A stretch of DNA of 64,000 bases from Cyanidioschyzon merolae. Lineage: Eukaryota. Position 1 is the stretch's first letter, and each line of letters begins with the position of its first letter. Of the stretch, positions 1,009 to 58,598 are shown one piece after another. The stretch lies in the NCBI GenBank assembly GCA_000091205.1, contig AP006486.2. One strand, written 5' to 3'. The translations under genes and the position numbers were made by a program. The notes under the pieces were generated by a model. That model worked only from the letters and a program-made list of their open reading frames with translations, did no database searches and was not told the DNA's origin.

Positions 1009-1689
1009 TTACAGTGGATAAGAGTACTCAACCTGGTGTCCCGAATGCACGACGGCCGTCCCGAATGCATTCTGCGTGACAAAAAGCAGCATGACCTCGC
1101 CGGTGTTGCTATCCCGAATGATCCACGGGTGACCCACGTACGTGGGCTGGAAGCGGCTCTTGCCGGGTTCCAGCCACCCAAACGGTATCTCTTGACCATT
1201 GAAATCAATCCAGTTCACTTCGACGACAACACCGGAGTCAGAGAGGTTCTCAAAAAGAATTAAGGTTCGGTCTTCGGTTTCAGAAGAACGGATTCCCTCC
1301 CAGTGGGGGCGCAAGTTGGGCGCCGCGGTCAGTCCCTCAGAAAATGGCAACGTTGGCATATTCGTTTCGGGGAAAGGAGCGGGAAGCGAAATGCCGTCTT
1401 CTACCCAAAGTTGACGAGCCGGTTCCCGAACCATACGAACGATAGCTTGCTCATTTGATTGTGCTAAAGCGGCGAGTACGCCTTTGTTCTCGACAACGGA
1501 CCGCGGCGCCAGCAGCCAGTCCCAGGCGAAGGCCACAGTCGTCGTTGCGCTGCGCGAATAAGACCACTGGTTCGGTGCACAGCACCCACAACCGGAGCGA
1601 CGTCGCCATCGTATTGGAAGCTTTCTCGCACCGCCCGCATTACCAGCGGTGCTAAACCCCAAAACGTGAACAAGCGCACCCGTTCCCAT
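1009..1689 (-). CDS. VHL beta-domain-like protein (start codon uncertain)
   Basis: C-terminal half ...LILFENLSDSGVVVEVNWIDFNGQEIPFGWLEPGKSRFQPTYVGHPWIIRD aligns with the von Hippel-Lindau beta-domain ([48 protein letters not shown]). The N-terminal part is low complexity. Confidence 0.45.
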   Translation of the reverse strand: MGTGALVHVLGFSTAGNAGGARKLPIRWRRRSGCGCCAPNQWSYSRSATTTVAFAWDWLLAPRSVVENKGVLAALAQSNEQAIVRMVREPARQLWVEDGISLPAPFPETNMPTLPFSEGLTAAPNLRPHWEGIRSSETEDRTLILFENLSDSGVVVEVNWIDFNGQEIPFGWLEPGKSRFQPTYVGHPWIIRDSNTGEVMLLFVTQNAFGTAVVHSGHQVEYSYPL

Positions 1690-1819: not shown

Positions 1820-4345
1820 CGGTCTCGAGCAACACGATGTTCGAAAGTCGAACGTCGCCACCGGTGTACAGTAGTGGCGACCGGCGCCCTAGACAAGAAG
1901 TCGCTAACGGATGTGCAGACATCTCCCAGCCGCTTTGGACCGGCCACCTTCTACTGGTTCCAACTTTTTCTCGTATAGTTCCACTTTGAGAGGTTGTCCG
2001 ATAAAGTTCTCTCTTGTCGGCTCTGGAGGTCTTTTCTCTAGCACCGTACATTTCCTTATATTGATGGCGGCATTAAAGTCTCGGTTCACAAACTCCATCC
2101 GTTTCTTCCATCATTGCTTGTTCTAACCAGCGCAGGTAGTCCACGAACTTTCGTCCTCCTTTCCATTTGCTCCTCCTTCAGCGGTCCGCACTTTGCTATA
2201 TGTTCAGGGGTCCGTTGGCACTTTTCTTTCTCGACCATCTGAAGTGTACAACCCAGTTCATGGTGTGTATAGGACGTTCGAAACTCATCTATCGGTATCG
2301 TAACGAAGCGGCTTGTGCACTCCTTGTACGTTCTTGTTGACGGAGCTGTTGTACTCCCTTTCTTCGACGCCCAGCGTCCTGCCCCATACGCTACCAGGAG
2401 CCTCTGACTTCCATCCTCCTTCAAGGCGTTCAACCGGTTGAAAAAATTCGCAACCGCCCGCTGTTTTCCACAATACAAATTCATTCGCAAACGAGCCCAC
2501 CGGGGCTTGGTATACTCCGCCCACAGTGCATCCCCATGGGCAACACGAACATCCATGAATTTCCGAAAAGGTTCAAAGTCCGCTCCTCGGCTCGTCGCCT
2601 CGCTCAAAGCTTCCAGGTGATCCTTCATTTCTGCATTCCACGGACCAATTTTCTTTCTTGCATTCACTATACCGGATTCTCGATAGTATCTCGCTCTGGC
2701 GAGCCTCAAAAGACGCATGTCTGTCTGGCGTAAGTTGCAATCAGTACCATCATCCGCACGCTTGGGAGCAGCGATGGTTATGATATTTGTGTTTCTAGGA
2801 TCCCCGCCAACGACAAAGTCGTTATCCTGCACCTCCTGCATCGTAGGACCCGCCTCCTTCTCATCTTCATCCTTCGTCACGGGTGCAGCCGAGGACGGAA
2901 CTGAACAATCCGCGTTCAAGCGCCGATTGTGTGCACACAGGGCTACCCCATCGGTTTTGATCATCCCAGTAAATACCTTTTGCTTGCTCACTTTGAGACA
3001 TTTGAAATCGAAGATGTTCTTCCAGTACGTCTTCCGGTTTTCACCGGAGAACTCCTCCCTGCTAACATCGAACTCCGGACAGATCTCCTTCATGATGCCG
3101 TAAAGGATTCTGGAGTCGATAGTCACAAAATGTGACTTGATCTTGCCCAACGGAACCACGTCGAAGCGCTTCCCTACTAGGAAAGCCTTCCGTCTCTCCC
3201 ACTCTTCATTTTTCCCGTTCAGCTTCATCTCTGCCTTGCGTTCGAGTTCTCGGTCCAGAAACACGAAATAGCACAGAATGAGGCGATCGTATCTTTCCTG
3301 ATCTTTGCTCAACTCTGATACCTTGTCTGTTGGATTCGGTAGCCCCAGTACCGCACGATGCTCTTGTATAACCGCACGGATCGCAGAAGCTTCATTCGTG
3401 GTCTCGTTTGACGCCTTCTTGTCGACAAATTCTACCTCATCTTCACGCTTGCGATCTTTCATGATGCCATTGATAATCGTCCATTTTCCATTGCGAGAGA
3501 TGCCCGGGTAGAGTGCAAACACGGTGCGTATCATGAAACGTTCGAGGTTCCCTGTCTCATGGTTCTTCAGATTCGTGAGGTACTTCATCGCCCCATAGCT
3601 GTAGATATCTCGGTCACCCTTGTTTCGAGTATCTTTGAAGCTGTAAAAGGGATGTCTTTCGTGTAGGGCATGTACTTGCTCATTTTTCCCTCCGTGTTTG
3701 CCCTGAACCAAGCATCAGGTGACGAACGAAGGTCTTGTCGAAGATCTCGTCTGGAATCTCGACTGTTTTGATGGCCGCCACGTCGCGATACATCTCCCTC
3801 GCCAGATGCATCAGTCCTGACAACGCCTTGACGATACTCTTAGAGTACGAGTCGAAAAGGTTGTGGATGGCCTCTTGAAACATTTGCTTGTAGAGATCCT
3901 TGATGTAATTAAGAAGACAGGCTTTCACCACCATCTCGTTGTACAGTCGTCTTTCTTGCCGCCTTCGACGTGGGGCCTTCCCTCTTTCGGTTCTTCTTCT
4001 CCTCCTTTTCTTCTGGACACGGCACTGTTTTTTGTTTTTGTTTTCCAGCAGCCGGCGACCCTGGGCCTCCAGGATCGTCGACTCAGTTTTTCATAACTTT
4101 CCATTTTTTTGGTTTTTTTGAAAAAAGCACTCTGTGAACGCTTCTCCAATATACTACGAAAAAAACACTTGACTAGACTTGTTTGAGTTTTGAAACATAA
4201 ATGAACTGAAAAACTATACTTTGCTACGTCCTGAACGGAAATCCGACTTTTCCAGCTGAATAACACGCTACTGATCAAAATCGCGTTTCCCTTCAACAAC
4301 GGCACCGTGCGCGTCGTGTCTCATGCCTGCCAGATCTCCCAGGTG
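1820..4345 (-). mobile_element. Fanzor1-like (eukaryotic TnpB-like) element, family A, copy 1, ~2.5 kb, single ORF, no TIRs
   Basis: Ends were set by where similarity to copy 2 stops. The 5' end (in element sense) reads GCGCACCTGGGAGATCTGGC near 4345. The 3' end reads ...CCGGTGGCGACGTTCGACTTTCGAACA near 1820-1836. No terminal inverted repeats, as in IS200/605-type TnpB elements. Confidence 0.7.
1904..4104 (-). pseudogene. Fanzor1-like RuvC nuclease ORF (~730 aa reconstructed) broken by at least 3 frameshifts; largest intact piece 2086..3711
   Basis: RuvC-I QDNDFVVGGDPRNTNIITIA at ~2770-2826. Zinc finger CTSRF...HHELGC...KCQRTPEHIAKC at ~2185-2319. RuvC-III EFVNRDFNAAINIRK at ~2057-2083 sits in a -1 frame relative to upstream (1-nt deletion relative to copy 2 at ~2095). 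Further frame breaks at ~3700 and ~3930. Confidence 0.7.
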
Positions 4346-5019
4346 CGCTCACTATGCGTCGATTCGTTTTCCGATGTCAACACCTTGCCATAGAACATAG
4401 AATCCAGATTGCGGGATGGATACTGAAATAAATGAGAGCGCTCATTATTCTTCGCTCCACCTTCAAGTTCCATTACTTATACTTCCTCTGGGATCTACTG
4501 GTCGTTTCGTATATTCTATCGTGCACCGAGTGCCTGCCTCGCTGCACCTGCAATAGCGCCCGTATCGTTGGAGCAGCTGCATCACCGAGACAGAAGAGCT
4601 TTGCCATACCACTGAGGGCGTCGGATCGAGGAATACTTCTCCTCACACGGACTCGGAGTGCATAATCACTCTGGTAACCAGCATGCTGTGCTTAAAGGCC
4701 TACTGCCTGTGGCAGCGCGGAGCGATGTACTAGGAGCCACTGCGACCAGCGCAACGCCCAGAAGCAGCGTACCCGCTCCTAGTCCCAGGATAAACTGCGT
4801 TGCGGACGGACTGCTCAGATCGGACCAAAGCACCTGCCACTGGGAGGAGCATGAAGCACGAGGCTAGCTGTCTCGTACGACTCATGGGACCTTCCACCAA
4901 GAAGGTAAACCTTCGGCAATATGGAAAGCTTTCCCCTTTTAACGTTTCTCGTAGAGGGGTAACGAAATTGTTATCTCATTACTGCGTGGTCGCTCGTTGC
5001 TGTTCTTTTTCCTAGAGCG

Positions 5020-7530
5020 CAGTCTGTTAGCACACCTGGGAGATCTGGCGGGCGTGAGACACGACTTGCAACTCGCAGTTGAAGCGAAACACGATCCTGA
5101 TCATTTGTAGACTTGTTACTGTGACTGGCAAGTTGTATTTGCATGAAAGTCGTAGCAAAGTATAGTCTTTCAGTTCTATCATGTCTCAACCACCAAGTAA
5201 CTGTATTCAAGTGATATTTCGCGGTTTATAGCGGAAGCGTTAATCGTGAACTCGTTTGCAAAAATAAATAAAGTTATGGAAATGAAAGTAGAGGATCCTG
5301 GAGGGCCTGTGCCGCCGCGTGCCGAGAAAAATACGGAAAACAGTGCCGTCCATGAGGAACAGGTGAAGACGGTGAAGCAAAAGGGGGCGAACCGACACCA
5401 GAACCTGCACGAAAGACGACAGTACGACGAATTGGTAGTGAAAGCCTGTCTTCTTGAACGTAACGCGGATCCCGTGAAGCAAAAGTTCTGAGATGCCATC
5501 AGAAACCCTACTGCATCTCACTCCTTGAGTGTTTGTAACGCATCTTCAGCACCAATTCATCTGACGAAGGAGATGTACCATGACGTGACGGACATCAAAA
5601 AAGTCGAGGCTCCGGAAGAATTGTCCAACGTGACCTTCCTTCGCCACGAGATGCTTGACACATGGGAAACAACGAGGAGAAATGAGCGAGTGCATGCACT
5701 CTACGAAAATTATGCAGAGTGCCGCTCCAACGGCACTCGATATAGGGGTGACTCAAATGTTCACAATTACGTGGCGATGAAGTACCTCTCGAATCTGAAG
5801 AACAAAACGACCATGAACCTGAAACGCTTCATGATACGCTCCATCTTTGCGCTCTACCCTGGGCTGTCTCGAAAAAAAAGGATATGGGCCATCATGATTG
5901 GCATCACGAACGATCGTCGGGATGCACAGGAGATCGAATTCGTGAACAAGAGGACATCACACAGGAGAAGGAAGACGCTTCTTTGATCCGTGCGGCGATT
6001 CATAAGCACCGCGTGGTTTTGGGGCTTGTCAACCCAACAGAAAAGGTTTCAGATATGAAAAAAGATGTTTTTCCCGCATCCTGCGCTAGTTCGTGTTCCT
6101 GAAGCGTGAACTCGGACGCAAGGCCGAAAAGGAGCTGAATGGGGGAAAAATGGAGAGTTGTTGGAACGGAAAGCTTTCGTACTGGGGGAACGCTTCAATG
6201 TCGTTTCGTTTTGCAACATCTAGTCAATGTTTGTTACATTCGACTTCAGAGTCCTTCATGGCATCATGAGGGAGATCAGTCCAGGGTTCGATGTGAGGAA
6301 GATACGGTTCATCGGCGAGAAACCGGGAGACATACCAGAAGAACATCTTCGATTTGAGACATCTCAAAACGAGCAAGAAAAAGTATTAACGGAGATGATC
6401 GAAACCGATGGAGTAGCCGTATTCGTACACTATAGTCGCTTGAAGGCAGATCGTCCTGTTCCGTCTTCGCTATCGCACTTGGCGAAACGTGAAGAAAACA
6501 AGGATGCGGATCCTGCGACACAGAAAGTGCAGGATAACGACTTTGTCGTTGGCGCGAACCCCGGAAACACGAATATCGTAACCATCGCTGTGCCCAGGCG
6601 TGCGGAAGATGGTACTGACGGCAACTTACGCCAGAAAGACATGTGTCTTTTGAGGCTCGCCAGAGCGAGATACTATCGAGAATCCGGTATAGTGAATGCA
6701 AGAAAGAAAATTGGTACGTGGAATGCAGAAATGAAGGATCACCTGGAAGCTTTGAGCGAGGCGACGAGCCGAGGAGCGGACTTTGAACCTTTTCGGAAAT
6801 TCATGGATGTTCGTGTTGCCCATGGGGATGCACTGTGGGCGGAGTATACCAAGCCCCGGTAGGCTCGTTTGCGAATGAATTTGTATTGTGGAAAACAGCG
6901 GGCGGTTGCGAATTTTTTCAATCGGTTGAACGCCTTGAAGGAGAATGAAAGTCAAAGGCTGGTAGTGGCATACTGAGCAGGGCGATGGAAGACCCGAAAA
7001 GGGTGTACGCCAGCTCCAATGACAAGAGCGTACAAGGAGTGCACGACGTTTCGTTACAATGCCTGTCGATGAGTTTCGAACATCGTATGCACACCATGAA
7101 CTGGGATGTACACTTCAGAAGGTCGAGATGGAAAAGTGCTAGCGGAGCCCTGAACATATAGCAAAGTGCGGACCGCTGACGGAGGAGCAAATAGAAAGGA
7201 GAGCGAAAGTTCGTGGACTACCTGCGCTGGTTAGAACAAGCAATGATGGCAAGAAACGGATGGAGTTTGTGAACCGAGACTTTAATGCCGCCATCAATAT
7301 AAGGAAATATACCGTGCTGGAGACGAGACCTCCAGAGCCGACAAGAGAGAACTTTATTGGACAACCTCTCAAAGTGGTACTATACGAGAAGAAGTTGGAA
7401 GCAGTAGTGGGTGGCCGGTCCAAAAAGACTGCGAGGCGCCTGCACATCAGTTGGCGTCTTCTTGTCTAGGGCGCCGGTCCCCGTTACTGTACACCGGTGG
7501 CGACGTTCGACTTTAGAACAGCGTTGATGG
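5020..7530 (+). mobile_element. Fanzor1-like element copy 2 (mosaic: 5' half family-B-like, 3' ~0.7 kb ~97% identical to copy 1), inverted head-to-head with copy 1
   Basis: Same termini as copy 1 (5' ...GCACACCTGGGAGATCTGGCGGG at ~5029, 3' ...CCGGTGGCGACGTTCGACTTTAGAACAGCG at ~7526). A ~675 bp spacer (4345-5020) separates the two inverted copies. Confidence 0.7.
5246..7469 (+). pseudogene. Fanzor1-like nuclease ORF, copy 2, multiple stops/frameshifts; RuvC-I aspartate replaced by asparagine
   Basis: ORF pieces 5246..5491, 5525..5986, 6227..6862 and 7260..7469. RuvC-I reads DNDFVVGANPGNTNIVTIA (D->N at ~6557). An in-frame TAG sits in the zinc-finger region (~7141). RuvC-III MEFVNRDFNAAINIRK at 7260-7307 is in frame with LPALVRTSNDGKKR upstream. 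Confidence 0.7.
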
Positions 7531-17914: not shown

Positions 17915-18416
17915 CGTCGAATAACGAGCAAGGAATGCGCTGCGGCTGGAGCGAAGCGCCGGTGGGCGTCCACCGGCGCAGCTCAGGGGGAACGATCGTT
18001 GAGGCAGGCGCTTTCGTGGCGTACGCTTTATGGGCCTTTACCTCGAGTGTATTTTATCCTCAGGTGTGGGTAACCAATTGCTTATCCATGGTGCATAGCG
18101 GATGCGTTAGAAGTGCGTTCATTGGAAGGAAGAAAGGCTGTCATCGCCGGATGCGATAAAAAATACCAAAAAAATGTCTCTTGTCGCCGACTGCCGAGCG
18201 ACGGCGATAAAGAAAAACAAGAGGGCATCTAGGCGAGGAAAGGCGTTCGCCCGGCCTGGCGATGGCCAGACTCTAGGGGTACAGGGGGGTGAGGGTGAGG
18301 GGGGTGTTCGACTCTGAGCAATCCCTGAATTGGTGCGTTCAACCAGCGGCACTGCATATAAGGAGTTCATCAACGAAGACTTTTCACACCACGATCGATA
18401 CCAAGCGACGGGTGTG

Positions 18417-18560
18417 GTGCTGGAGACGAGAAACCCGAGGAGCTGACGCGATCCAGCCCAGTCGGACAGCCGCTCACGGTCGACTTGTACAACGACAAGT
18501 TGGAATCAGTACCAAGGGGCCGGTCAAAAAAAGTCGCGAAGCACCTGCACGTCGGTCTCT
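18417..18560 (+). repeat. solo degenerate 3'-terminal fragment of the Fanzor element (RuvC-III-downstream region)
   Basis: ctggagacgagaaacccgaggagctgacgcgatccagcc...gttggaatcagtaccaaggggccggtcaaaaaaagtcgcgaagcacctgcac aligns with copy-2 7315-7455 (ctggagacgagacctccagagccgacaagagag...gttggaagcagtagtgggtggccggtccaaaaagactgcgaggcgcctgcac). Confidence 0.5.
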
Positions 18561-44785: not shown

Positions 44786-45229
44786 TTGCGTTGCCGAAGA
44801 AGAGCGGGACGCGGCCCTGCGTTGCTAGACTTTCACGCACCTACGCTCAGATTGTGGGCGAGCTTTAGGCGCACGTCAGGCGCAGCGCGCTGCTGGGGCG
44901 CTCTTCTCCGTGGGTACGACGCCGCAGCCGCCGCAGCCGCCGCAGGCACCCTCGCTGTTGGCTCACGGAGGCGGTGGCGATGTGCGCGCGTCGGGCGGCA
45001 GGTCATAATGCGAGTGTCCTGTTTATTCCATAAAGTTCTGTTTCATCAGCGACACGCTGTGGTATGCGAAAGTGTTGGGCTGGCTCTTGTGCATGGACCG
45101 ACAACCGTGTTGGCATGCAATGGAACAGGTACTTTACCAAGACATACCATTGAAACAAAAGATGTCTTCAGGGAATGGAGTATATATACGCACCAGCAGA
45201 CGACTCCCAGCCTTTATTGACCGGCCCAC

Positions 45230-45800
45230 TGTTATAGTTTTTCAGTTTATCTAGGTACAGTTCGGGTGCCAAAGACTGCCCCACGACGTTGGATCGCTTC
45301 AGCTCTTCGAGTATCGTCTTCAGCACCGCATATCGTCTGATACAGATGGAGATGTTGAAGTCTTGCTTGAATATACCATCGCAGGGATTGCTGGCACTTG
45401 TACCCTCTCTGCCGCAACAGGCTCGTCATTGTCCCGTCAAGCAAACTGCCTTACTCGCCTATCTGCCCTTTTCTTGTTAGTCATTTGCTATTCTCTGCTC
45501 GATGGTCGGCGTGAAGAGGGTTCTTCTTTTTTGTGAAATTCGCCTATGAGAGTCCATCAGGATCCCCGACTTGCGTGTCCATAACTTTCCTTCATTTTTT
45601 TAAATCTTCAAATGAACGCACTTGTTTATGCCCAAAGGTGAGGAGTCTCCCCCGACTGCGAAGGACTTGTGGAAGAAAGATGACGCGTGCCCCAATGTCT
45701 ACATGTGCTGAACGCTTCAGCGAGTCGCCCAGTCCAGCGATCATTACGTTTTACCATAGAAAACACTCTAGCCATGGGTTTGAACCAGGCAGCGCGCTAA
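45230..45800 (-). mobile_element. internally deleted derivative (mini-element 3) of the family-A Fanzor element, same deletion junction as mini-element 1
   Basis: 45290-45640 aligns continuously with mini-element 1 31560-31915 (e.g. ccatcaggatccccgacttgcgtgtccataactttcc vs ccctccaggatccgcgactttccggtccataccttcc; tcttcaaatgaacgcact shared). The 45640-45790 stretch continues into the 5'-end region (ctgaacgcttc, aaaacactctagcc vs copy-1 aaaacacttgactag). Confidence 0.5.
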
Positions 45801-49587: not shown

Positions 49588-51960
49588 GTGCATTTCTATC
49601 CTCTAAACTCAATTGTGTTCCATCGCCAGGTGCGTGGAATCAAATGCTCTTCCGCGGTTCATTGCAGACGTGCTCGATGTGGGTTCATTTGAAGAAATAA
49701 AAAGTTCTGCGAATGGAATTGGAGACTTCTGGAAGCCTGATTTCGCCGGCTGCCGCAGAAAAACGAAAAGCAGTGTTGAGCGAAGAGGAACAAGACAGCA
49801 TGAAGAGGCAGAGGCAGGAGGCCCTGCGTCAAAAGCTGCTCGAAAGATGAGAGTACGACGAGACGGTCGTGGACGCCTGTCTTCTTGTACATGTCAAGGA
49901 TCCGTATGAGCAAACGATGCAAGCGGACGTCAGAAACCGTGTCGAGTCGTACCGCATAAGTATGATAAAGGCCGCTCCAAGACTGATGTATGTGGTAACG
50001 AAAGTGTATCGCGACATAACGCACGCGGAAACAATCGAGTTTCCAGAGGAAATTTCCAACGTAACCTTCATCGGCCACCTGACGCTTGCCACCGGGGAAA
50101 CGTCGAGGTGAAATGAGCGGGTGCATGGCCTCCATGAAAATTACGCCAAATACCGCCTCAACGGCACTCGATACAGGGATGACTCGGGTGTTTACACCTA
50201 CGGGGCGTTGAATTACCCTACGAACCTGAGAAAGCATATGAACATGAACCTGAAACGCTTCATGGTACGCGCCGTCATTGCGCTGTACCCGGGCCTCTCT
50301 CGCAAAGGGATACGAGTCATCATCCGTGGCATCACGAATGATCGACAGCATGAACAGGAGATCGAATTCTTCCACAAGAAGACATCACGCAAGAGAAAGA
50401 ATGAAGCTTCTGTAATCCGTGCGGCTATTATTGAGCACCGTGCAGTCTTGGGGCTTGTCAACCTACAAGAAAAGATATCAGATAGGAAAAAAGATGAAGA
50501 AAGATGTTATCCCCTAATCCTGCGCAATTTCGTGTTTTTTGACCGAGAACTCGAACGCAAAGCCGACATGGAGCTGAGTAGGGGAAAATGCGCAGTCGGA
50601 GAGACGCAAGGCTGCGGTTCCGGGGAGGCGCCTCAATATCGTTCCGTTATGCTACGTCAAGTCACGCGTTGTGACAATCGACTCCACAATCCTTTATACC
50701 ATCATGAAGGAGATCAGTCCCGAGTTCAATGCAAGCAGGGAGAAGTTCACCCGCGGAGACGGGAAAATCTACCGGATGAATATCTTCGATTTCAAGCGCC
50801 TCAACACCAGCAAGAAAAAGTTATTCACTGGGATGATCGAAAGCGATGGAGTAGCCGTGTGTGGAGACTATCGGCGCTTGAAGGCGGATCGCCCAGTTCC
50901 GTCATCGGCTTCGCCCTTGGCGAAGCATGAAGAAAACAAAGAGGCTGGCAGTACGAAACAGGAGGCGCAGGAGGACGACTGTGCCGTTGGCGCGGACCCG
51001 GGAACACGAATATCGTACCCATCGCAGCACCCAAGCGTGCGGAAGACGGTATCGACGGCAACTTACGCCACAATGACATGCGACTTCCAAAGTACTTGAG
51101 AGCGAAAAATTGCCGATAATCGGGAATAATGAATGCAAGGAAGGAAAGTGAGACATGGAATGCAGGAGTGAGCGCGCACCTGGAAGCTATGAGCAATTTC
51201 GCGAGTCGTGGATCGAACTTTCATTTCTTTCGTGAATTCATGGAATATCAAGCTGCTCGTGACGAGGAGCTGTGGAAATAGCAAACAGAACCGCGATGGG
51301 CTCGTCTGCGAATGAATCCGCACAGAGGGAAGCAGCGCGCGTTCGCGAAATTTTTCAAACAGTTGATTGCCCTCATGGAGGACAAGAGTCAAAGGCTCAT
51401 ACTAGCATACGGAACTGGGCGCTGGGCACCCGGAAAAGGGTGTGTACCCGCCCCGTCGACGAGAGCGTACAAGGAGTGCGCACGATGTTTTGTCACGATA
51501 CCGGTAGATGAGCTCCGAACATCGTATGTGGATCATGAACTGGGATGTCCACCTCCGAGAGTCGAGATGGAAAAGTGCCCGTGGAGCCCTGAGGATATAA
51601 AAAAGCACGGAGAGCTGACGGAGCATCAAATGGCTCAGAGGGCGCGAGTTGGAGGACTCCTTGCATAGGTGAGCTCTACCAACGGTAACAAACGCACTGA
51701 CTTCGTGAACCCAGACTTTAACGCCGCTATCAATATCAGACGACGTGCTGTATTGGAGAAGAGATATCCCGAGCTAACGAGAGCCAACTTTGTCGGGCAA
51801 CCTCTTAAGGTGGCACTCTACGAGAAGCATTTGAAACCGATCGCAGCGGGCCGGTCGTAAACGGCCGGGAGACGCCTGCCGGGTGGATACCTATCTACCC
51901 TATGTGGCCGTGGAACATTTTTCGTTTCACTGACAAATGAGTTTGCGCTGGTAGCGCGTA
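49588..51960 (+). mobile_element. Fanzor1-like element copy 3 (family B, ~55-60% protein identity to family A), 3' end approximate
   Basis: 5' boundary was set by the end of homology with mini-element 2. The 3' region gggccggtcgtaaacggccgggagacgcctgc parallels the family-A ggtggccggtccaaaaagactgcgaggcgcctgc. Confidence 0.6.
49700..51860 (+). pseudogene. Fanzor1-like nuclease ORF copy 3, broken into pieces (49869..50111, 50121..50930, 50671..51099, 51312..51668, 51669..51860)
   Basis: N-terminal MYVVTKVYRDITHAETIEFPEEISNVTFIGHL and NERVHGLHENY...LYPGLSRKG...IEHRAVLGLVN...FVFFDRELERKA are homologous to copies 1 and 2. RuvC-I DDCAVGADPGTR has a frameshift inside the motif. Zinc finger KECARCF...HELGCP...KCPWSPEDIKKHG. 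RuvC-III DFVNPDFNAAINIRRR at ~51705-51737. Confidence 0.65.
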
Positions 51961-54873: not shown

Positions 54874-57800
54874 CTACATTGTCGCCGCTCGGCAATAGAT
54901 TGATCAGTTGCGTCTGGACGCGCAAGGTCAGCTTCTGCATACACACTACCGAGCCCATTTACTCTTGCAAATAGAATGGTATGTAGCTCGCTCGATTCCT
55001 CAGCTTTCATGGAGCGCGTGGCTTTCGTGAAGCGCAGCTACCAGCATAGCGGCGAGTTCCGGAACACCTGCACCAGCATGCGTATTTGCACCTGATTGTC
55101 CTCCTCATCGATATTCAATAGAAGAAATGTATCTCGTAGATCGGAGGAAGGTCGCGGAAAGAGTTTATGCTGTGACTGCTCGCTTGTGAAAAACGGGCCA
55201 ACTTGTACAAGTCAGTCTTTGTATGGTCAGCAAACGGATGAACACCAGTCTCGATGTCTAAGCCTGTGCATCAGAACCCTAAACCCTACTTGTAAAACGC
55301 TGTCAACGCGAATGTCATGTCGTCGGCCCACTCCTCTCCATAGATGCAATGGGGAGTACCACAACAGAAGCCAGGCGGTTTCAGGTTTCCCCAGCATGGA
55401 TTTCAATCGCGGTGAAGAGACACGGATTCACAAAAAGAAAAAAGCACGCCTCTACGGGGGATTGTCTTGCATTGCACAAAAAACTACCGATTTCGCTCCG
55501 AAATGCGACGGTGTGTTACGTCAGGGAAGGATGCTCGTCGCCATCGATGAGAATTTATTCGGACGACATGCTAGACCTCTGAGTGGGTTCTCGAAGAGGG
55601 GCAAACAGTTGTTCATCCGGCACAGACAACAGAGCATAACGACAATATCAGGCATATCAGCGATTCAAACGTGTGGTCGCCTTTAAAGCGCCAGACGGTA
55701 AAGTTTGCTCAACATCTCATTCTTCGTTGAAACACCTCGTGGCTTCCCCTTCCCAAATAACTCTGTCTTGCTGCCGGACAACGTCGCTGTCTATAACTCA
55801 GAAGCGGTCAATGAGCATGCAACTGCGATTGGCCTTGAGCTGCTGTATCGCTAGCCTAAGCTCACGGGTCAGTACACGAGCCGTTCGCAGTGATCAAACC
55901 GAAGTTGTTCGACAACTCGTTCTGTACTCTATTCACGAGCCTTGAACTGCCGTGTTGCTTGCTGGCTCGCAAACGAGAAAGAGCGAGAAAACGCACTCGG
56001 ATCCGGCGGTATGCGCGCGACGGAAAGCTACTTGTGGATTAGAAAATACGTATGCAGAAAGATGAGCTGGATTCGCTCCATCTAACCAGTGCGTACGAAT
56101 CCGGAAGAACAAAACGAATATAGAGTATAACGACAGCATCCATGTGAACACGCTATGACAATTTGAAGCAGCAGAGAGCAACGGAGAAAGAAGAGCGAGA
56201 TCTTCCCGAAAAGATCACCAGAAAGATCAGGAAGCACATTCTCTTGGAGCGGAAACATGAGTTTGATACGCAACTGGAAAATCCTGCTTAGCAGAACGTA
56301 TGAACCGGGTGAAACTTCCGAAAACTGAAGTGCAGGTTGCCGTTCATCGTAGCGTTCCATCTGTCTAGGGTGACAATTGTGACGCATCTTTCGACTTGAT
56401 GCAAGTCGTTGAGCAACGGGTTGTAAAAGTAACGGACGTAGACCTGCCAGCTGTCCATTTTCCTGTGGAAATTTTGATCGAACATTCGAGCGACGACACA
56501 CCTGATGCTTGGGACAGAAGATGCAACCCGACCAGATCGAATGAATCATGGATGTGCGGAAACGCTGCCAAACATACTTTGACACGTCGATGGGCGACGT
56601 TGATGGTCAGAACGTCAACAGCTCAGGTGCCAACGAATATCAAACAACCTAGAAAATCATATGCCGGTCGATCAAGAGCGCTTCATCAAGCACAACCTGT
56701 AGGCGTGACAGCCTCACCTAATTTGCGCAGAAAAATTGGCACTCATGGAAGGGATTCCTGGTGTGCAGATAGATACGAATGACGAGCTGGCGCCTGAAAA
56801 GGTAGAAATGGTGGCGAGCTCGGAACAGAGGTCGCAACGACAGCCAGAGTCGCTGCAGATCACCCAAGCGTATCGTGTTGCTGTCGACCGCGGATTGACG
56901 CACGTCGTGTCCAAAGAAGAGTTGAGAAGCGATGCGGGCGTGTCTTGCATCTTGCGCTGCCAAGTTTCCGCGGATAGAGACCTCTCGAGCAAAGCAGACT
57001 TGCTTCGCAGAGTCCGGGCGCCCGTGTCTCCTTTAGCGTCTATTCGACGCAATCCGAATTCGACACATCAGGGACCATGATATCACCCTAGACGCTCATG
57101 ATATGGAAGGCCCATGTAGTGAGATGTATTTCGTCTCTGCGAGCAAGGATGCAACATTCGAACGAATTCAGATATTTCAGTGGCGGGACTCCTTCAAGAC
57201 TTTCCGTTTACGGTAAGGAAATGGAGATCACTTTACACGAACGATTGAGACGCACGGCGTATCGTTCTGCATGTGCCTGCTCGAAGTCGGCAAGCCCGGT
57301 CTGCATTGCGTATCGGAGGCCATGTTCAACTGCGCAAGACAGATGGAGAGGTAGGCATCGTCAACGGCAAGCATCCAAAGCTGGTCAACGTTTCTATTGT
57401 ATGCTATTGTAAACAGTCGGGCATAAAACACCCCAGGTCGCATACCACCTACTAAAATGATGGTGTCAGGACGCCTGTCGACACCCTTAGCTCCGTCTCA
57501 GGCGGAGGAGATGCGATGCACGCTTCATCCAGACAGAGTACACGAGCGTCCAAATGGCGTACGCAGACGAGCTTCGCCAGGAGTTCATGCGCCCGTGCTA
57601 GGCTGCCGGAGCTCTCTGAGGTCCGCAGTCAAGATGCATGCATTCACCGAATTCCTTGCATCGTTCGAAATGGAAATAATCTATCTTTCGCGTCCTTCAG
57701 TTGTAGTCCATGACGCTGCACCTACTCTGTCACGCAAGGGCGAGCACTTCTGTCCGTCCGATGGGAGCGCACAACGAGTGTATGAGTCAATGCTTCGAGA

Positions 57801-58598
57801 TTTCCAGTGATGCATTCATGACGACTTTCACGCATCACGAGCGCGGGTGCTCGCTGCATGAGGTAAACAAAAAATGAGCGTTAAACAGAGAGTGATGCAC
57901 GCGATGGTGTACAGTTCGCTGACTGAACGTCAGATAACGAGACAGTCGAAGAGGCGTTGCTTGTCATCGCATGATGCCAACCGCGACCATACGCGCAAGC
58001 ACCTTCAGCACCGAGGCTCTGCGCCTCGGTAGGCATCCGAATATATCTCGTGCTTCCAGAGCGTGCAGTAGTTTTGTTTCGAGCATTTTATCGAGTGAAT
58101 TCTTTAGCACTAAATGTGGGCGTTGTGCTTCAATGCTGCAGACTTGCAGTGAAAAACAACTGTAGCCCGGAGAGTGCAGTGGATTCTCACCTCCAGTACG
58201 GCACTGGTGTGGAACGGTTCAGCAATCCAGCTGCACGCCTGGAACGCCGCACACATGCACCGTGAAAGAATCTCCCAGGGGAATTAGCTGATGATACTAA
58301 TGCTCGGTAATTCGATGGTGCTGAGTATACGAGCACGAGCATCCAAAAAACAATACACTCTTCAAGGGCCTGTATATAACGCAGCTTCCAACGCCGGCAC
58401 TTTGTGTGCGTTATGGCGCACTGAGTCACCGGCCGATGAACCGATCCTTTCGCGTGAGAGAGCTCCCACTAACGCTGACCTCTTCGCTGTGCAGAATATG
58501 CGGCATCGGTGCGTTCTGCTTGACGCACAACCTTCCTAAAGACAATGCATTTCTAGCGAGCGAACCTCTGACGCAGCGCGGGTAAACGCAGTTACGTG

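Follow-up and report, generated by a model that had tools for sequence, protein, structure and literature searches.

Do stretches of near-perfect identity between two otherwise diverged, inverted transposon copies record gene conversion between them, or were they already present when one of the copies was inserted? The question is raised by a 64,000-nucleotide stretch of chromosome 4 of Cyanidioschyzon merolae strain 10D (GenBank assembly GCA_000091205.1, contig AP006486.2; here, the window), which has a G+C content of ~55% and intronless genes, including those of the Rab GTPase BAM79145 and CMD091C. A first-pass annotation of this DNA, made from the sequence alone, had described an inverted head-to-head pair of elements sharing one tract of ~700 bp at ~97% identity and had proposed either intrachromosomal gene conversion or a recombinant origin of the second copy. 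The two copies belong to a published Fanzor1 (TnpB-like) family, CMe-1A, and each is a pseudogene. We found that their near-identity is confined to short stretches, and we consider it highly probable (about 90%) that these arose by repeated short (~70- to 300-bp) non-crossover conversion between the inverted copies. Differences between strains, a variable edge of the core tract, and base frequencies in the family all support the first of the two proposals.

The inverted head-to-head arrangement itself is real. A repeat search and BLAST delimited arms at 1834-4352 (minus strand, copy 1) and 5026-7524 (plus strand, copy 2) that are 78.3 to 78.6% identical over ~2.53 kb and are separated by 673 bp. 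Homology of the arms stops at the element terminus, at 7525 in copy 2 and 1834 in copy 1. Our strain sample consisted of eight metagenome contigs, L001 to L008, retrieved via the neighboring Rab gene. L001 to L007 come from 7 different metagenome samples and were assembled independently; they are ~99% identical to the window, are collinear with it over as much as 10.8 kb, and include the inverted pair in every case. The overall identity of L008 is 95%, and the 5' half of its copy 1 differs. The same arrangement occurs in about a dozen hot-spring metagenome contigs, and four further contigs, retrieved through the gene that follows copy 2, extend into this copy from the opposite side. This recurrence across independent assemblies from 7 samples excludes the misassembled palindrome that the first-pass annotation had named as a possible pitfall. 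The segment between the tracts is not inverted in 10D or in L001 to L007, so that flanking markers are unexchanged, with contig L040 as a possible exception (see below).

We aligned the two copies globally, computed their identity in a sliding window, and then listed all mismatches, using copy-2 coordinates. A single ~700-bp tract at ~97% is absent: the region assigned to it is 91.5% identical (624/682 when delimited on copy 1 and 707/773 when delimited on copy 2). Instead, the profile resolved several short near-identical tracts with divergent patches between them (Table 1), and with identity varying from 72 to 100%, uniform divergence along the alignment is excluded. The longest perfect run measures 144 bp, a length never attained when the mismatch positions were shuffled 20,000 times; the result holds when only the 999 columns of the better-conserved 3' part are shuffled. 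The 5' halves, earlier estimated at ~65 to 75%, are ~72% identical (419 mismatches in 1,491 columns). A peptide quoted as identical in both copies is so apart from a P/T difference, and a pair of antisense open reading frames (ORFs) does match at 59 of 60 positions; both likenesses are due to the core tract. Copy 2 had also been described as closer to another family type in its 5' half. This holds for 5635-6030, where copy 2 is 77 to 82% identical to copy 3, a third member of the family in the window, versus 68 to 75% to copy 1; at its extreme 5' end and in its 3' kilobase, copy 2 is nearer copy 1 than copy 3. Within the core tract, the identity of copy 3 is 64 to 73%. The divergent patch at 6944-7043 is 72% identical between the paralogs in every strain, and it is the copy 1 version that is atypical, with a median family identity of 77.6% versus 83.7% for the copy 2 version.

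The 3'-ward perfect tract, at 7204-7308, is private to 10D. For each pair of paralogous positions in the alignment, we recorded the base present in each strain. At 15 consecutive diagnostic sites (7222, 7226, 7227, 7229, 7232, 7240, 7244, 7247, 7254, 7259, 7272, 7277, 7284, 7286, and 7292), copy 2 of 10D has the copy-1 base in 15 of 15 cases, and L001 to L006 differ, often by having the copy-3 or family base. In copy 1, 14 of these sites have the same base in every strain; the remaining one, 2135 (the partner of 7222), is T in L003 to L006. The tract in 10D is 100% identical to copy 1 of L001, L002, L007, and L008, and the unconverted version of copy 2 is found in ten contigs (L001 to L006, L040, L095, L097, and L098) that are 97 to 100% alike. 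The length of the tract is 71 to 105 bp, its outer bounds being 7203 and 7309, two sites at which the copies in 10D have remained different. A G at ~2107 that is present in all eight other strains (8/8) is missing from copy 1 of 10D and kept in copy 2 of 10D; therefore, the deletion in copy 1 either postdates the conversion or is a reference error. The 15 changes comprise 6 AT-to-GC, 6 GC-to-AT, and 3 neutral ones, and GC-biased conversion was not seen among them. Exact-protein look-ups of two 10D-specific ORFs matched no independent assembly.

The core tract has a variable edge. Over 6730-6943 the paralogs are 96.7 to 100% identical in every strain, and over 6645-6729 they are 98.8% identical in 10D, 96.5% in L007, and 93 to 94% in L001 to L006. 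Sites 6659, 6661, 6667, and 6703 have copy-1 bases in copy 2 of 10D and L007 and not in L001 to L006; site 6729 is converted in 10D only, site 6644 is converted in L007 only, and site 6808 is also converted in 10D. To place these bases in the family, we used a sample of 80 loci from 173 metagenome matches, with ~70 non-orthologous members. The copy-1 bases at 2700, 2698, 2656, 2630, and 2551 occur in 1, 0, 2, 5, and 2 of 70 members, respectively. All five are present in copy 2 of 10D, and the unconverted copy 2 has the family-majority base, which identifies copy 1 as the donor.

Transfer also occurred in the other direction. Of 70 family members, 69 have G at 2429, and every strain has a rare A at the homologous site of copy 2 (6930). 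In copy 1, the base is A in 10D, L001, L002, L007, and L008 and G in L003 to L006. The rare A of copy 2 thus moved into copy 1 in one strain group. At two further sites, the paralogs share rare derived alleles. At 2535/6824, where 3 of 70 members have G, both copies have G in 10D, L001, and L002, and both have T in L003 to L006. The TGA allele at 2498/6861, found in 0 of 70 family members, is carried by copy 2 in 10D and by copy 1 in L001, L004, L005, and L008. Altogether, the base frequencies point to copy 1 as the donor, with reverse transfer at one or two sites.

Near-identity in the tracts is specific to the copy 1/copy 2 pair within the sampled members. The best non-orthologous member reaches 88.7% in the core tract (median, 83%) and 87.6% at 7204-7308, and no third copy sharing either tract was found among the ~70 members, a comparison that did not extend to the complete 10D genome. 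Outside the tracts, the 5' half of copy 1 is 86 to 89% identical to other loci versus 72% to copy 2, and the 5' half of copy 2 is 74 to 78% identical to everything sampled. The two copies are thus not sisters and most likely represent two independent insertions. The baseline of ~87% between the copies in the 3' kilobase was considered as a trace of older conversion, and this was rejected: it is due to family-level conservation, unrelated members having medians of 80 to 86% and a maximum of 90%. Across the family, the 3' kilobase is conserved at a median of 80 to 86% (best, ~90%) versus 74 to 82% for the 5' part.

The assignment of both copies to CMe-1A is based on species, protein homology, and architecture. 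Three-frame translation of copy 1 gave the RuvC motifs VVGGDPRNTN (2785-2814), IDEFRTS (2272-2292), and NRDFNAAINIRK (2051-2086), the last of which is readable only past a frameshift, i.e., after mending of the 1-bp deletion private to 10D. The motif order D ... E ... RD is thus present in copy 1, and the motifs align with those of Spizellomyces punctatus Fanzor1 (SpuFz1). Copy 1 holds a 541-amino-acid ORF (2086-3711) and has frameshifts near 3690 and ~2107. The reading frame of copy 2 is interrupted by at least 8 stops, and 2 bp are deleted near 7044. A D-to-N change has removed the first aspartate of its RuvC-I motif (VVGANPGNTN, 6545-6574); copy 2 retains VDEFRTS (7065-7085) and NRDFNAAINIRK (7272-7307). 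Lesions of copy 1 vary among strains: 10D alone lacks the G at ~2107, and L002 to L007 have an extra T at ~3303. The gene calls of copy 1 in L001, L004, and L005 are split at their TGA at 2498, and in L002, L003, and L006 its ORF extends over 453 amino acids to the natural stop.

A database search with the repaired copy-1 protein matched 64 relatives, nearly all from hot-spring metagenomes. Many of them carry the uncharacterized domain PF26935 (DUF8286), and the three most distant (P0124 to P0126) carry PF07282, the TnpB/Cas12f zinc-ribbon (TNB) domain. A Pfam search of the 541-amino-acid ORF and of the repaired copy-1 protein matched no family. An 18-member family profile matched SpuFz1 (PDB 8GKH) at an E value of 1.4e-10 over 365 positions (profile positions 277-641); the search of the PDB with a single sequence had returned only a spurious match to angiogenin (E = 0.07), and SpuFz1 was reached via the profile. 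In the zinc-ribbon region, the sequence of C. merolae members is TSYTHHELGC...C...C, in which CxxC pairs are not evident, and P0124 to P0126 have TSKCCASCG. The motif published for this region is [TS][TS]-x-x-C4...RD, with a C4 ribbon between RuvC-II and RuvC-III (PMC3627910). CMe-1A was described as a family of ~150 copies in C. merolae, ~80% identical to a consensus of ~3 kb that lacks terminal inverted repeats and whose 5' 635 bp correspond to a second element, TE-N2_CMe; some of the copies were reported to be intact (Bao & Jurka 2013, Mobile DNA 4:12; PMC3627910).

We propose that a break or gap in one copy would be repaired by homologous recombination, with the inverted copy, 2.5 to 5 kb away on the same chromosome, serving as the template. 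Two routes, we infer, would fit, synthesis-dependent strand annealing and the formation of a heteroduplex that is then corrected by mismatch repair; a patch would be replaced and the flanks would not be swapped. An older event would have produced the core at 6730-6943, common to all sampled strains. Another would have extended it leftward over 6659-6703 in 10D and its nearest sampled relative, L007, with 6729 and 6808 also changed in 10D, and a third would have transferred the tract spanning 7222-7292 in 10D only. At least one reverse transfer, from copy 2 to copy 1, would account for the base at 2429. A block of perfect identity would in turn be a better substrate for exchange, so tracts should renew themselves. 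C. merolae has an efficient homologous recombination that is exploited for gene targeting (PMC3764038). That conversion was recurrent and bidirectional and took place at different times in different lineages is well supported.

Several points weigh against this account. The strain contigs are metagenomic and can be consensus or chimeric sequences. Inside the 214-bp core, short reads are not assignable to one paralog; the polymorphisms shared at 2535/6824, 2498/6861, and 2597/6762 are for this reason weaker evidence than the boundary sites and 7222-7292. Assemblers struggle in the core, where four contigs (L007, L096, L097, and L098) break. The changes of 10D at 6659-6729 and 7222-7292 could stem from one long heteroduplex with patchy repair, and the shared core may stem from conversion or from recombinant ancestry. 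Finally, 11 changes private to 10D in copy 1 (3258-3340) match neither copy 2, copy 3, nor the sampled members, and exchange within the pair therefore does not account for everything at the locus. These changes reflect either transfer from a donor outside the sample or a cluster of mutations; among the sampled members (~80 loci), none shares more than 4 of the 11 bases.

Under the other origin proposed in the first-pass annotation, copy 2 was inserted as a recombinant of two subfamilies, and the tract was inherited from an ancestor shared with copy 1. Such a history agrees with the deeper mosaicism of the pair, in which copy 2 is nearer copy 3 over 5635-6030, with the presence in all strains of a core (6730-6943) whose origin is not datable, and with the mosaic look of the whole family, exemplified by the variants in L008, L095, and L096. 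Yet it leaves the strain differences unexplained (the state of 7222-7292 is found in 10D only, and that of 6659-6729 varies); an inherited tract should have diverged like its 72 to 88% identical flanks, yet the tracts are at 99 to 100%, and no other sampled member resembles them (at most 89%). We therefore regard it as improbable, and for the 10D-private tract it is already contradicted. A recombinant origin of copy 2 is unneeded for the near-identical tracts and may account for the older mosaic of the 5' half. A recent inverted duplication, in which identical palindrome arms have since diverged except at the tracts, is less probable still: the head-to-head layout, in which the homology boundaries at 4352 and 5026 are turned toward each other, is what it would leave, but the arms are not closest relatives (86 to 89% elsewhere versus 72% for the 5' half of copy 1; 74 to 78% for that of copy 2), and a 5' module lies in tandem ahead of copy 2 only.

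It is equally hard to attribute the pair or its identical patches to a misassembled or mispolished palindrome. Assemblies are notoriously prone to error at inverted repeats that contain identical blocks, metagenome contigs break in the core, and L040 switches there from copy 1 to copy 2. Nevertheless, the same arrangement was obtained, at ~99% identity and over up to 10.8 kb, in contigs of 7 samples; arms that are 72 to 88% identical outside the tracts are not collapsible; sequence specific to copy 2 borders the 105-bp tract of 10D at either end, close enough to fall within one read length; and this tract keeps the base missing from copy 1 of 10D, so it was not pasted from the reference copy 1. 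We give as little credit to selective constraint, by which the identical stretches would encode a function such as a RuvC segment or a guide-RNA scaffold. The 10D-private tract does span the RuvC-III motif, and the 3' kilobase is better conserved in the family (medians of 80 to 86% versus 74 to 82% for the 5' part), but other members are at ~83% in the same segments; copy 2 has its stops and a dead RuvC-I, and the identity extends to synonymous positions. The state of the tracts also varies by strain, and constraint cannot yield 15 bases of the other paralog. Fanzors are RNA-guided nucleases, and as a special case of conversion, an active Fanzor from another CMe-1A copy might cut here and start the repair. 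The copies do belong to a Fanzor1 family with members reported to be intact (PMC3627910), and all recognizable tracts lie within the 3' 900 bp. However, neither a cleavage site nor a guide or target motif was found, RNAalifold gave only -3.1 kcal/mol for the 3' 230 nucleotides, spontaneous breaks and ordinary recombination suffice, and the better conservation of the 3' kilobase would by itself favor exchange there. Such stimulation thus seems to us a long shot.

Table 1. Features of the inverted pair and identity of its segments (segments in copy-2 coordinates, identity to copy 1 in 10D)
Feature	Coordinates	Strand	Remarks
Copy 1	1834..4352	-	Fanzor1 CMe-1A coding unit, lightly damaged pseudogene in 10D; 3' terminus from family alignment
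Copy 2	5026..7525	+	Fanzor1 coding unit, heavily decayed pseudogene
Copy 3, same family	49640..51879	+	Outgroup within the window; 72% identical to copy 1 and to copy 2
5' noncoding module	4360..5025	+	Contiguous with copy 2, same orientation
Probable core conversion tract, copy 2	6645..6943	+	296/299 identical in 10D
Probable core conversion tract, copy 1	2416..2714	-	Partner of 6645-6943
Probable 10D-private conversion tract	7204..7308	+	Covers RuvC-III motif; copy 1 donor, copy 2 recipient
Donor segment in copy 1	2050..2153	-	Holds 10D-private 1-bp deletion at ~2107
TGA stop in copy 2	6860..6862	+	TGG to TGA at 6861; homologous copy-1 site, 2498
Segment	5026-6526		71.9%
Segment	6527-6644		87.3%
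Segment	6645-6943 (copy 1, 2714-2416)		99.0% (296/299), 3 mismatches
Segment	6944-7043 (copy 1, 2316-2415)		72.0%; divergent unconverted patch
Segment	7044-7203		86.9%
Segment	7204-7308 (copy 1, 2153-2050)		100%, 0/104 mismatches plus one 1-bp indel
Segment	7309-7524		87.9%

The interval between the arms had been taken for a spacer of ~675 bp (4345-5020). Its length stands, at 673 bp, but it is not a mere spacer, since it is part of a transposon: it contains a 5' module that probably corresponds to the TE-N2_CMe-like 635-bp module of the published consensus. The module is contiguous with copy 2, which is therefore full-length (~4360-7525, ~3.17 kb), and the 5' end of copy 1 abuts the outer end of this module. 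The module aligns just upstream of a Fanzor unit, in the plus orientation, in at least nine other loci (L035, L036, L037, L045, L063, L078, L079, L081, and L083), with ~70% identity over 585 to 735 bp. More generally, it recurs upstream of many members and also away from Fanzor units, as in the module-like copies at 7697-8152 of L076 and 3783-4047 of L030. A ~170-bp piece of the module (4459-4630), located upstream of the Fanzor unit, points one way in some members and the opposite way in others, L020 to L025, L044, L057, L058, L066, L068, and L076 forming one group and L035 to L037, L045, L063, and L078 to L083 the other; for example, 2296-2461 of L025 is the reverse complement of 2016-2184 of L063. 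Possibly, the module is a small element in its own right (TE-N2_CMe) that adjoins Fanzor units in either orientation. The repeat search of the window returned no inverted repeats of at least 30 nucleotides joining both ends of one copy.

The 3' terminus of the family is sharp and ends in ...GAACGGCGTT, at 7525 in copy 2 and ~1834 in copy 1. Its conserved end (7460-7525, 1834-1900, and ~40 family loci) reads ...GGCG-N-CGCCACTACTGTACACC...CGTTCGACTTTCGAACGGCGTT and includes a terminal palindrome, CGTTCGA-CTT-TCGAACG. RNAalifold applied to the last 230 nucleotides of 23 members gave a weak consensus (-3.1 kcal/mol) with almost no covariation. This conserved end could be the transposon end or the end of a guide-RNA scaffold.

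Further variants of the locus were found in individual contigs. In L040 (JGI20133J14441_1007055, positions 1-1500), the sequence is copy-1-like to at least 2498 and copy-2-like by 6922 at the latest, with one clean switch in the core, and it continues into the gene downstream of copy 2. L040 is either a crossover inversion isomer or an assembly chimera, and a chimera is plausible, since four other contigs break in the core; no protein cluster representing the hybrid was found among the database matches. In L008 (3900-5140, equivalent to 3172-4440 of the window), the 5' half of copy 1 and ~90 bp beyond it are replaced by sequence 91% identical to L023, and the 3' half of copy 1 and the flanking genes are ~99% identical to the window. 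This replacement reflects either ectopic recombination in the strain or a chimeric contig. Two ENA contigs, L095 (1-440; window 6540-6975) and L096 (1-575; window 6767-7339), begin with a third version of copy 2 that differs by ~10 to 17% and then continue as normal copy 2; among the sampled members, none exceeded 90.5% identity as a donor for these starts. Together with the 3258-3340 cluster, the variants in L008, L095, and L096 may be further ectopic exchanges with unsampled copies.

Elsewhere in the window, fragments of a Fanzor C terminus lie at 18395-18553 (+), 45180-45365 (-), and 57737-57871 (+). Repeated pieces of 100 to 230 nucleotides related to the 5' untranslated region of copies 1 and 2 occur at 31739-31970/33485-33716 and at 45524-45623, one pair of them being inverted and 1.5 kb apart. 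These fragments and pieces were probably left by this family or a related one. The gene adjoining copy 1 (1009-1689, minus strand) encodes a protein of 226 amino acids; its match to the VHL beta domain (PF01847; E = 1.5e-11) exceeds the curated cut-off, and such a domain is somewhat unexpected for a red alga.

The locus provides a clean natural case of short-tract conversion between diverged inverted transposon copies, in which donor, recipient, and relative timing can be read from the comparison of wild strains. Homologous recombination of C. merolae, used for targeting in the laboratory, would thus also reshape repeats in nature. Segments that include a nonsense allele and the RuvC-III motif move between these two copies, so Fanzor pseudogenes swap functional motifs as well as disabling mutations. 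For annotators, the caution is that divergence of transposon copies is not a simple age clock. The process is ordinary, and no new kind of element or mechanism is revealed: the family has been described before, conversion between repeats is textbook knowledge, and what is new is this instance and the evidence from natural populations. We can only speculate, and doubt more than we believe, that exchange across the whole family of ~150 copies is frequent enough to explain a puzzle raised in 2013, how intact Fanzor1 genes occur in a family ~80% identical to its consensus, that it may carry working as well as broken segments from copy to copy, patch dead copies, and be stimulated by surviving nucleases, and that the pair may flip its inner segment (compare L040).

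The copies share with CMe-1A the species, the TnpB-like D...E...RD motifs, a length of ~3 kb, a 5' module of ~635 to 665 bp, the lack of terminal inverted repeats, and the occurrence of many old copies, diverged to roughly 80%. The study of Bao and Jurka (2013) covers the family and its consensus and neither this locus nor exchange between copies (PMC3627910). The likeness to SpuFz1 consists of the aligned RuvC motifs (DP..., DE[FY][RK]TS, and NRD); the homology is distant, the C. merolae copies are without recognizable zinc-ribbon cysteine pairs, and copies 1 and 2 are pseudogenes. As for the exchange itself, yeast Ty elements undergo ectopic conversion between dispersed copies, and short non-crossover patches are known between diverged repeats; such conversion yields mosaic elements and transfers functional as well as disabling mutations. 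Here, in contrast to Ty, exchange involves two neighboring, inverted copies on a single red-algal chromosome, and the events took place in natural strains rather than in a selection experiment. In human Y palindromes and plastid inverted repeats, conversion occurs from arm to arm and the intervening DNA is kept, and a crossover may flip the spacer. Inverted orientation, an intrachromosomal template, and homogenization are common to those systems and the pair described here; however, their whole arms are near-identical, whereas here islands of 100 to 300 bp stand in arms that are 72 to 88% identical and that did not originate from a duplication.

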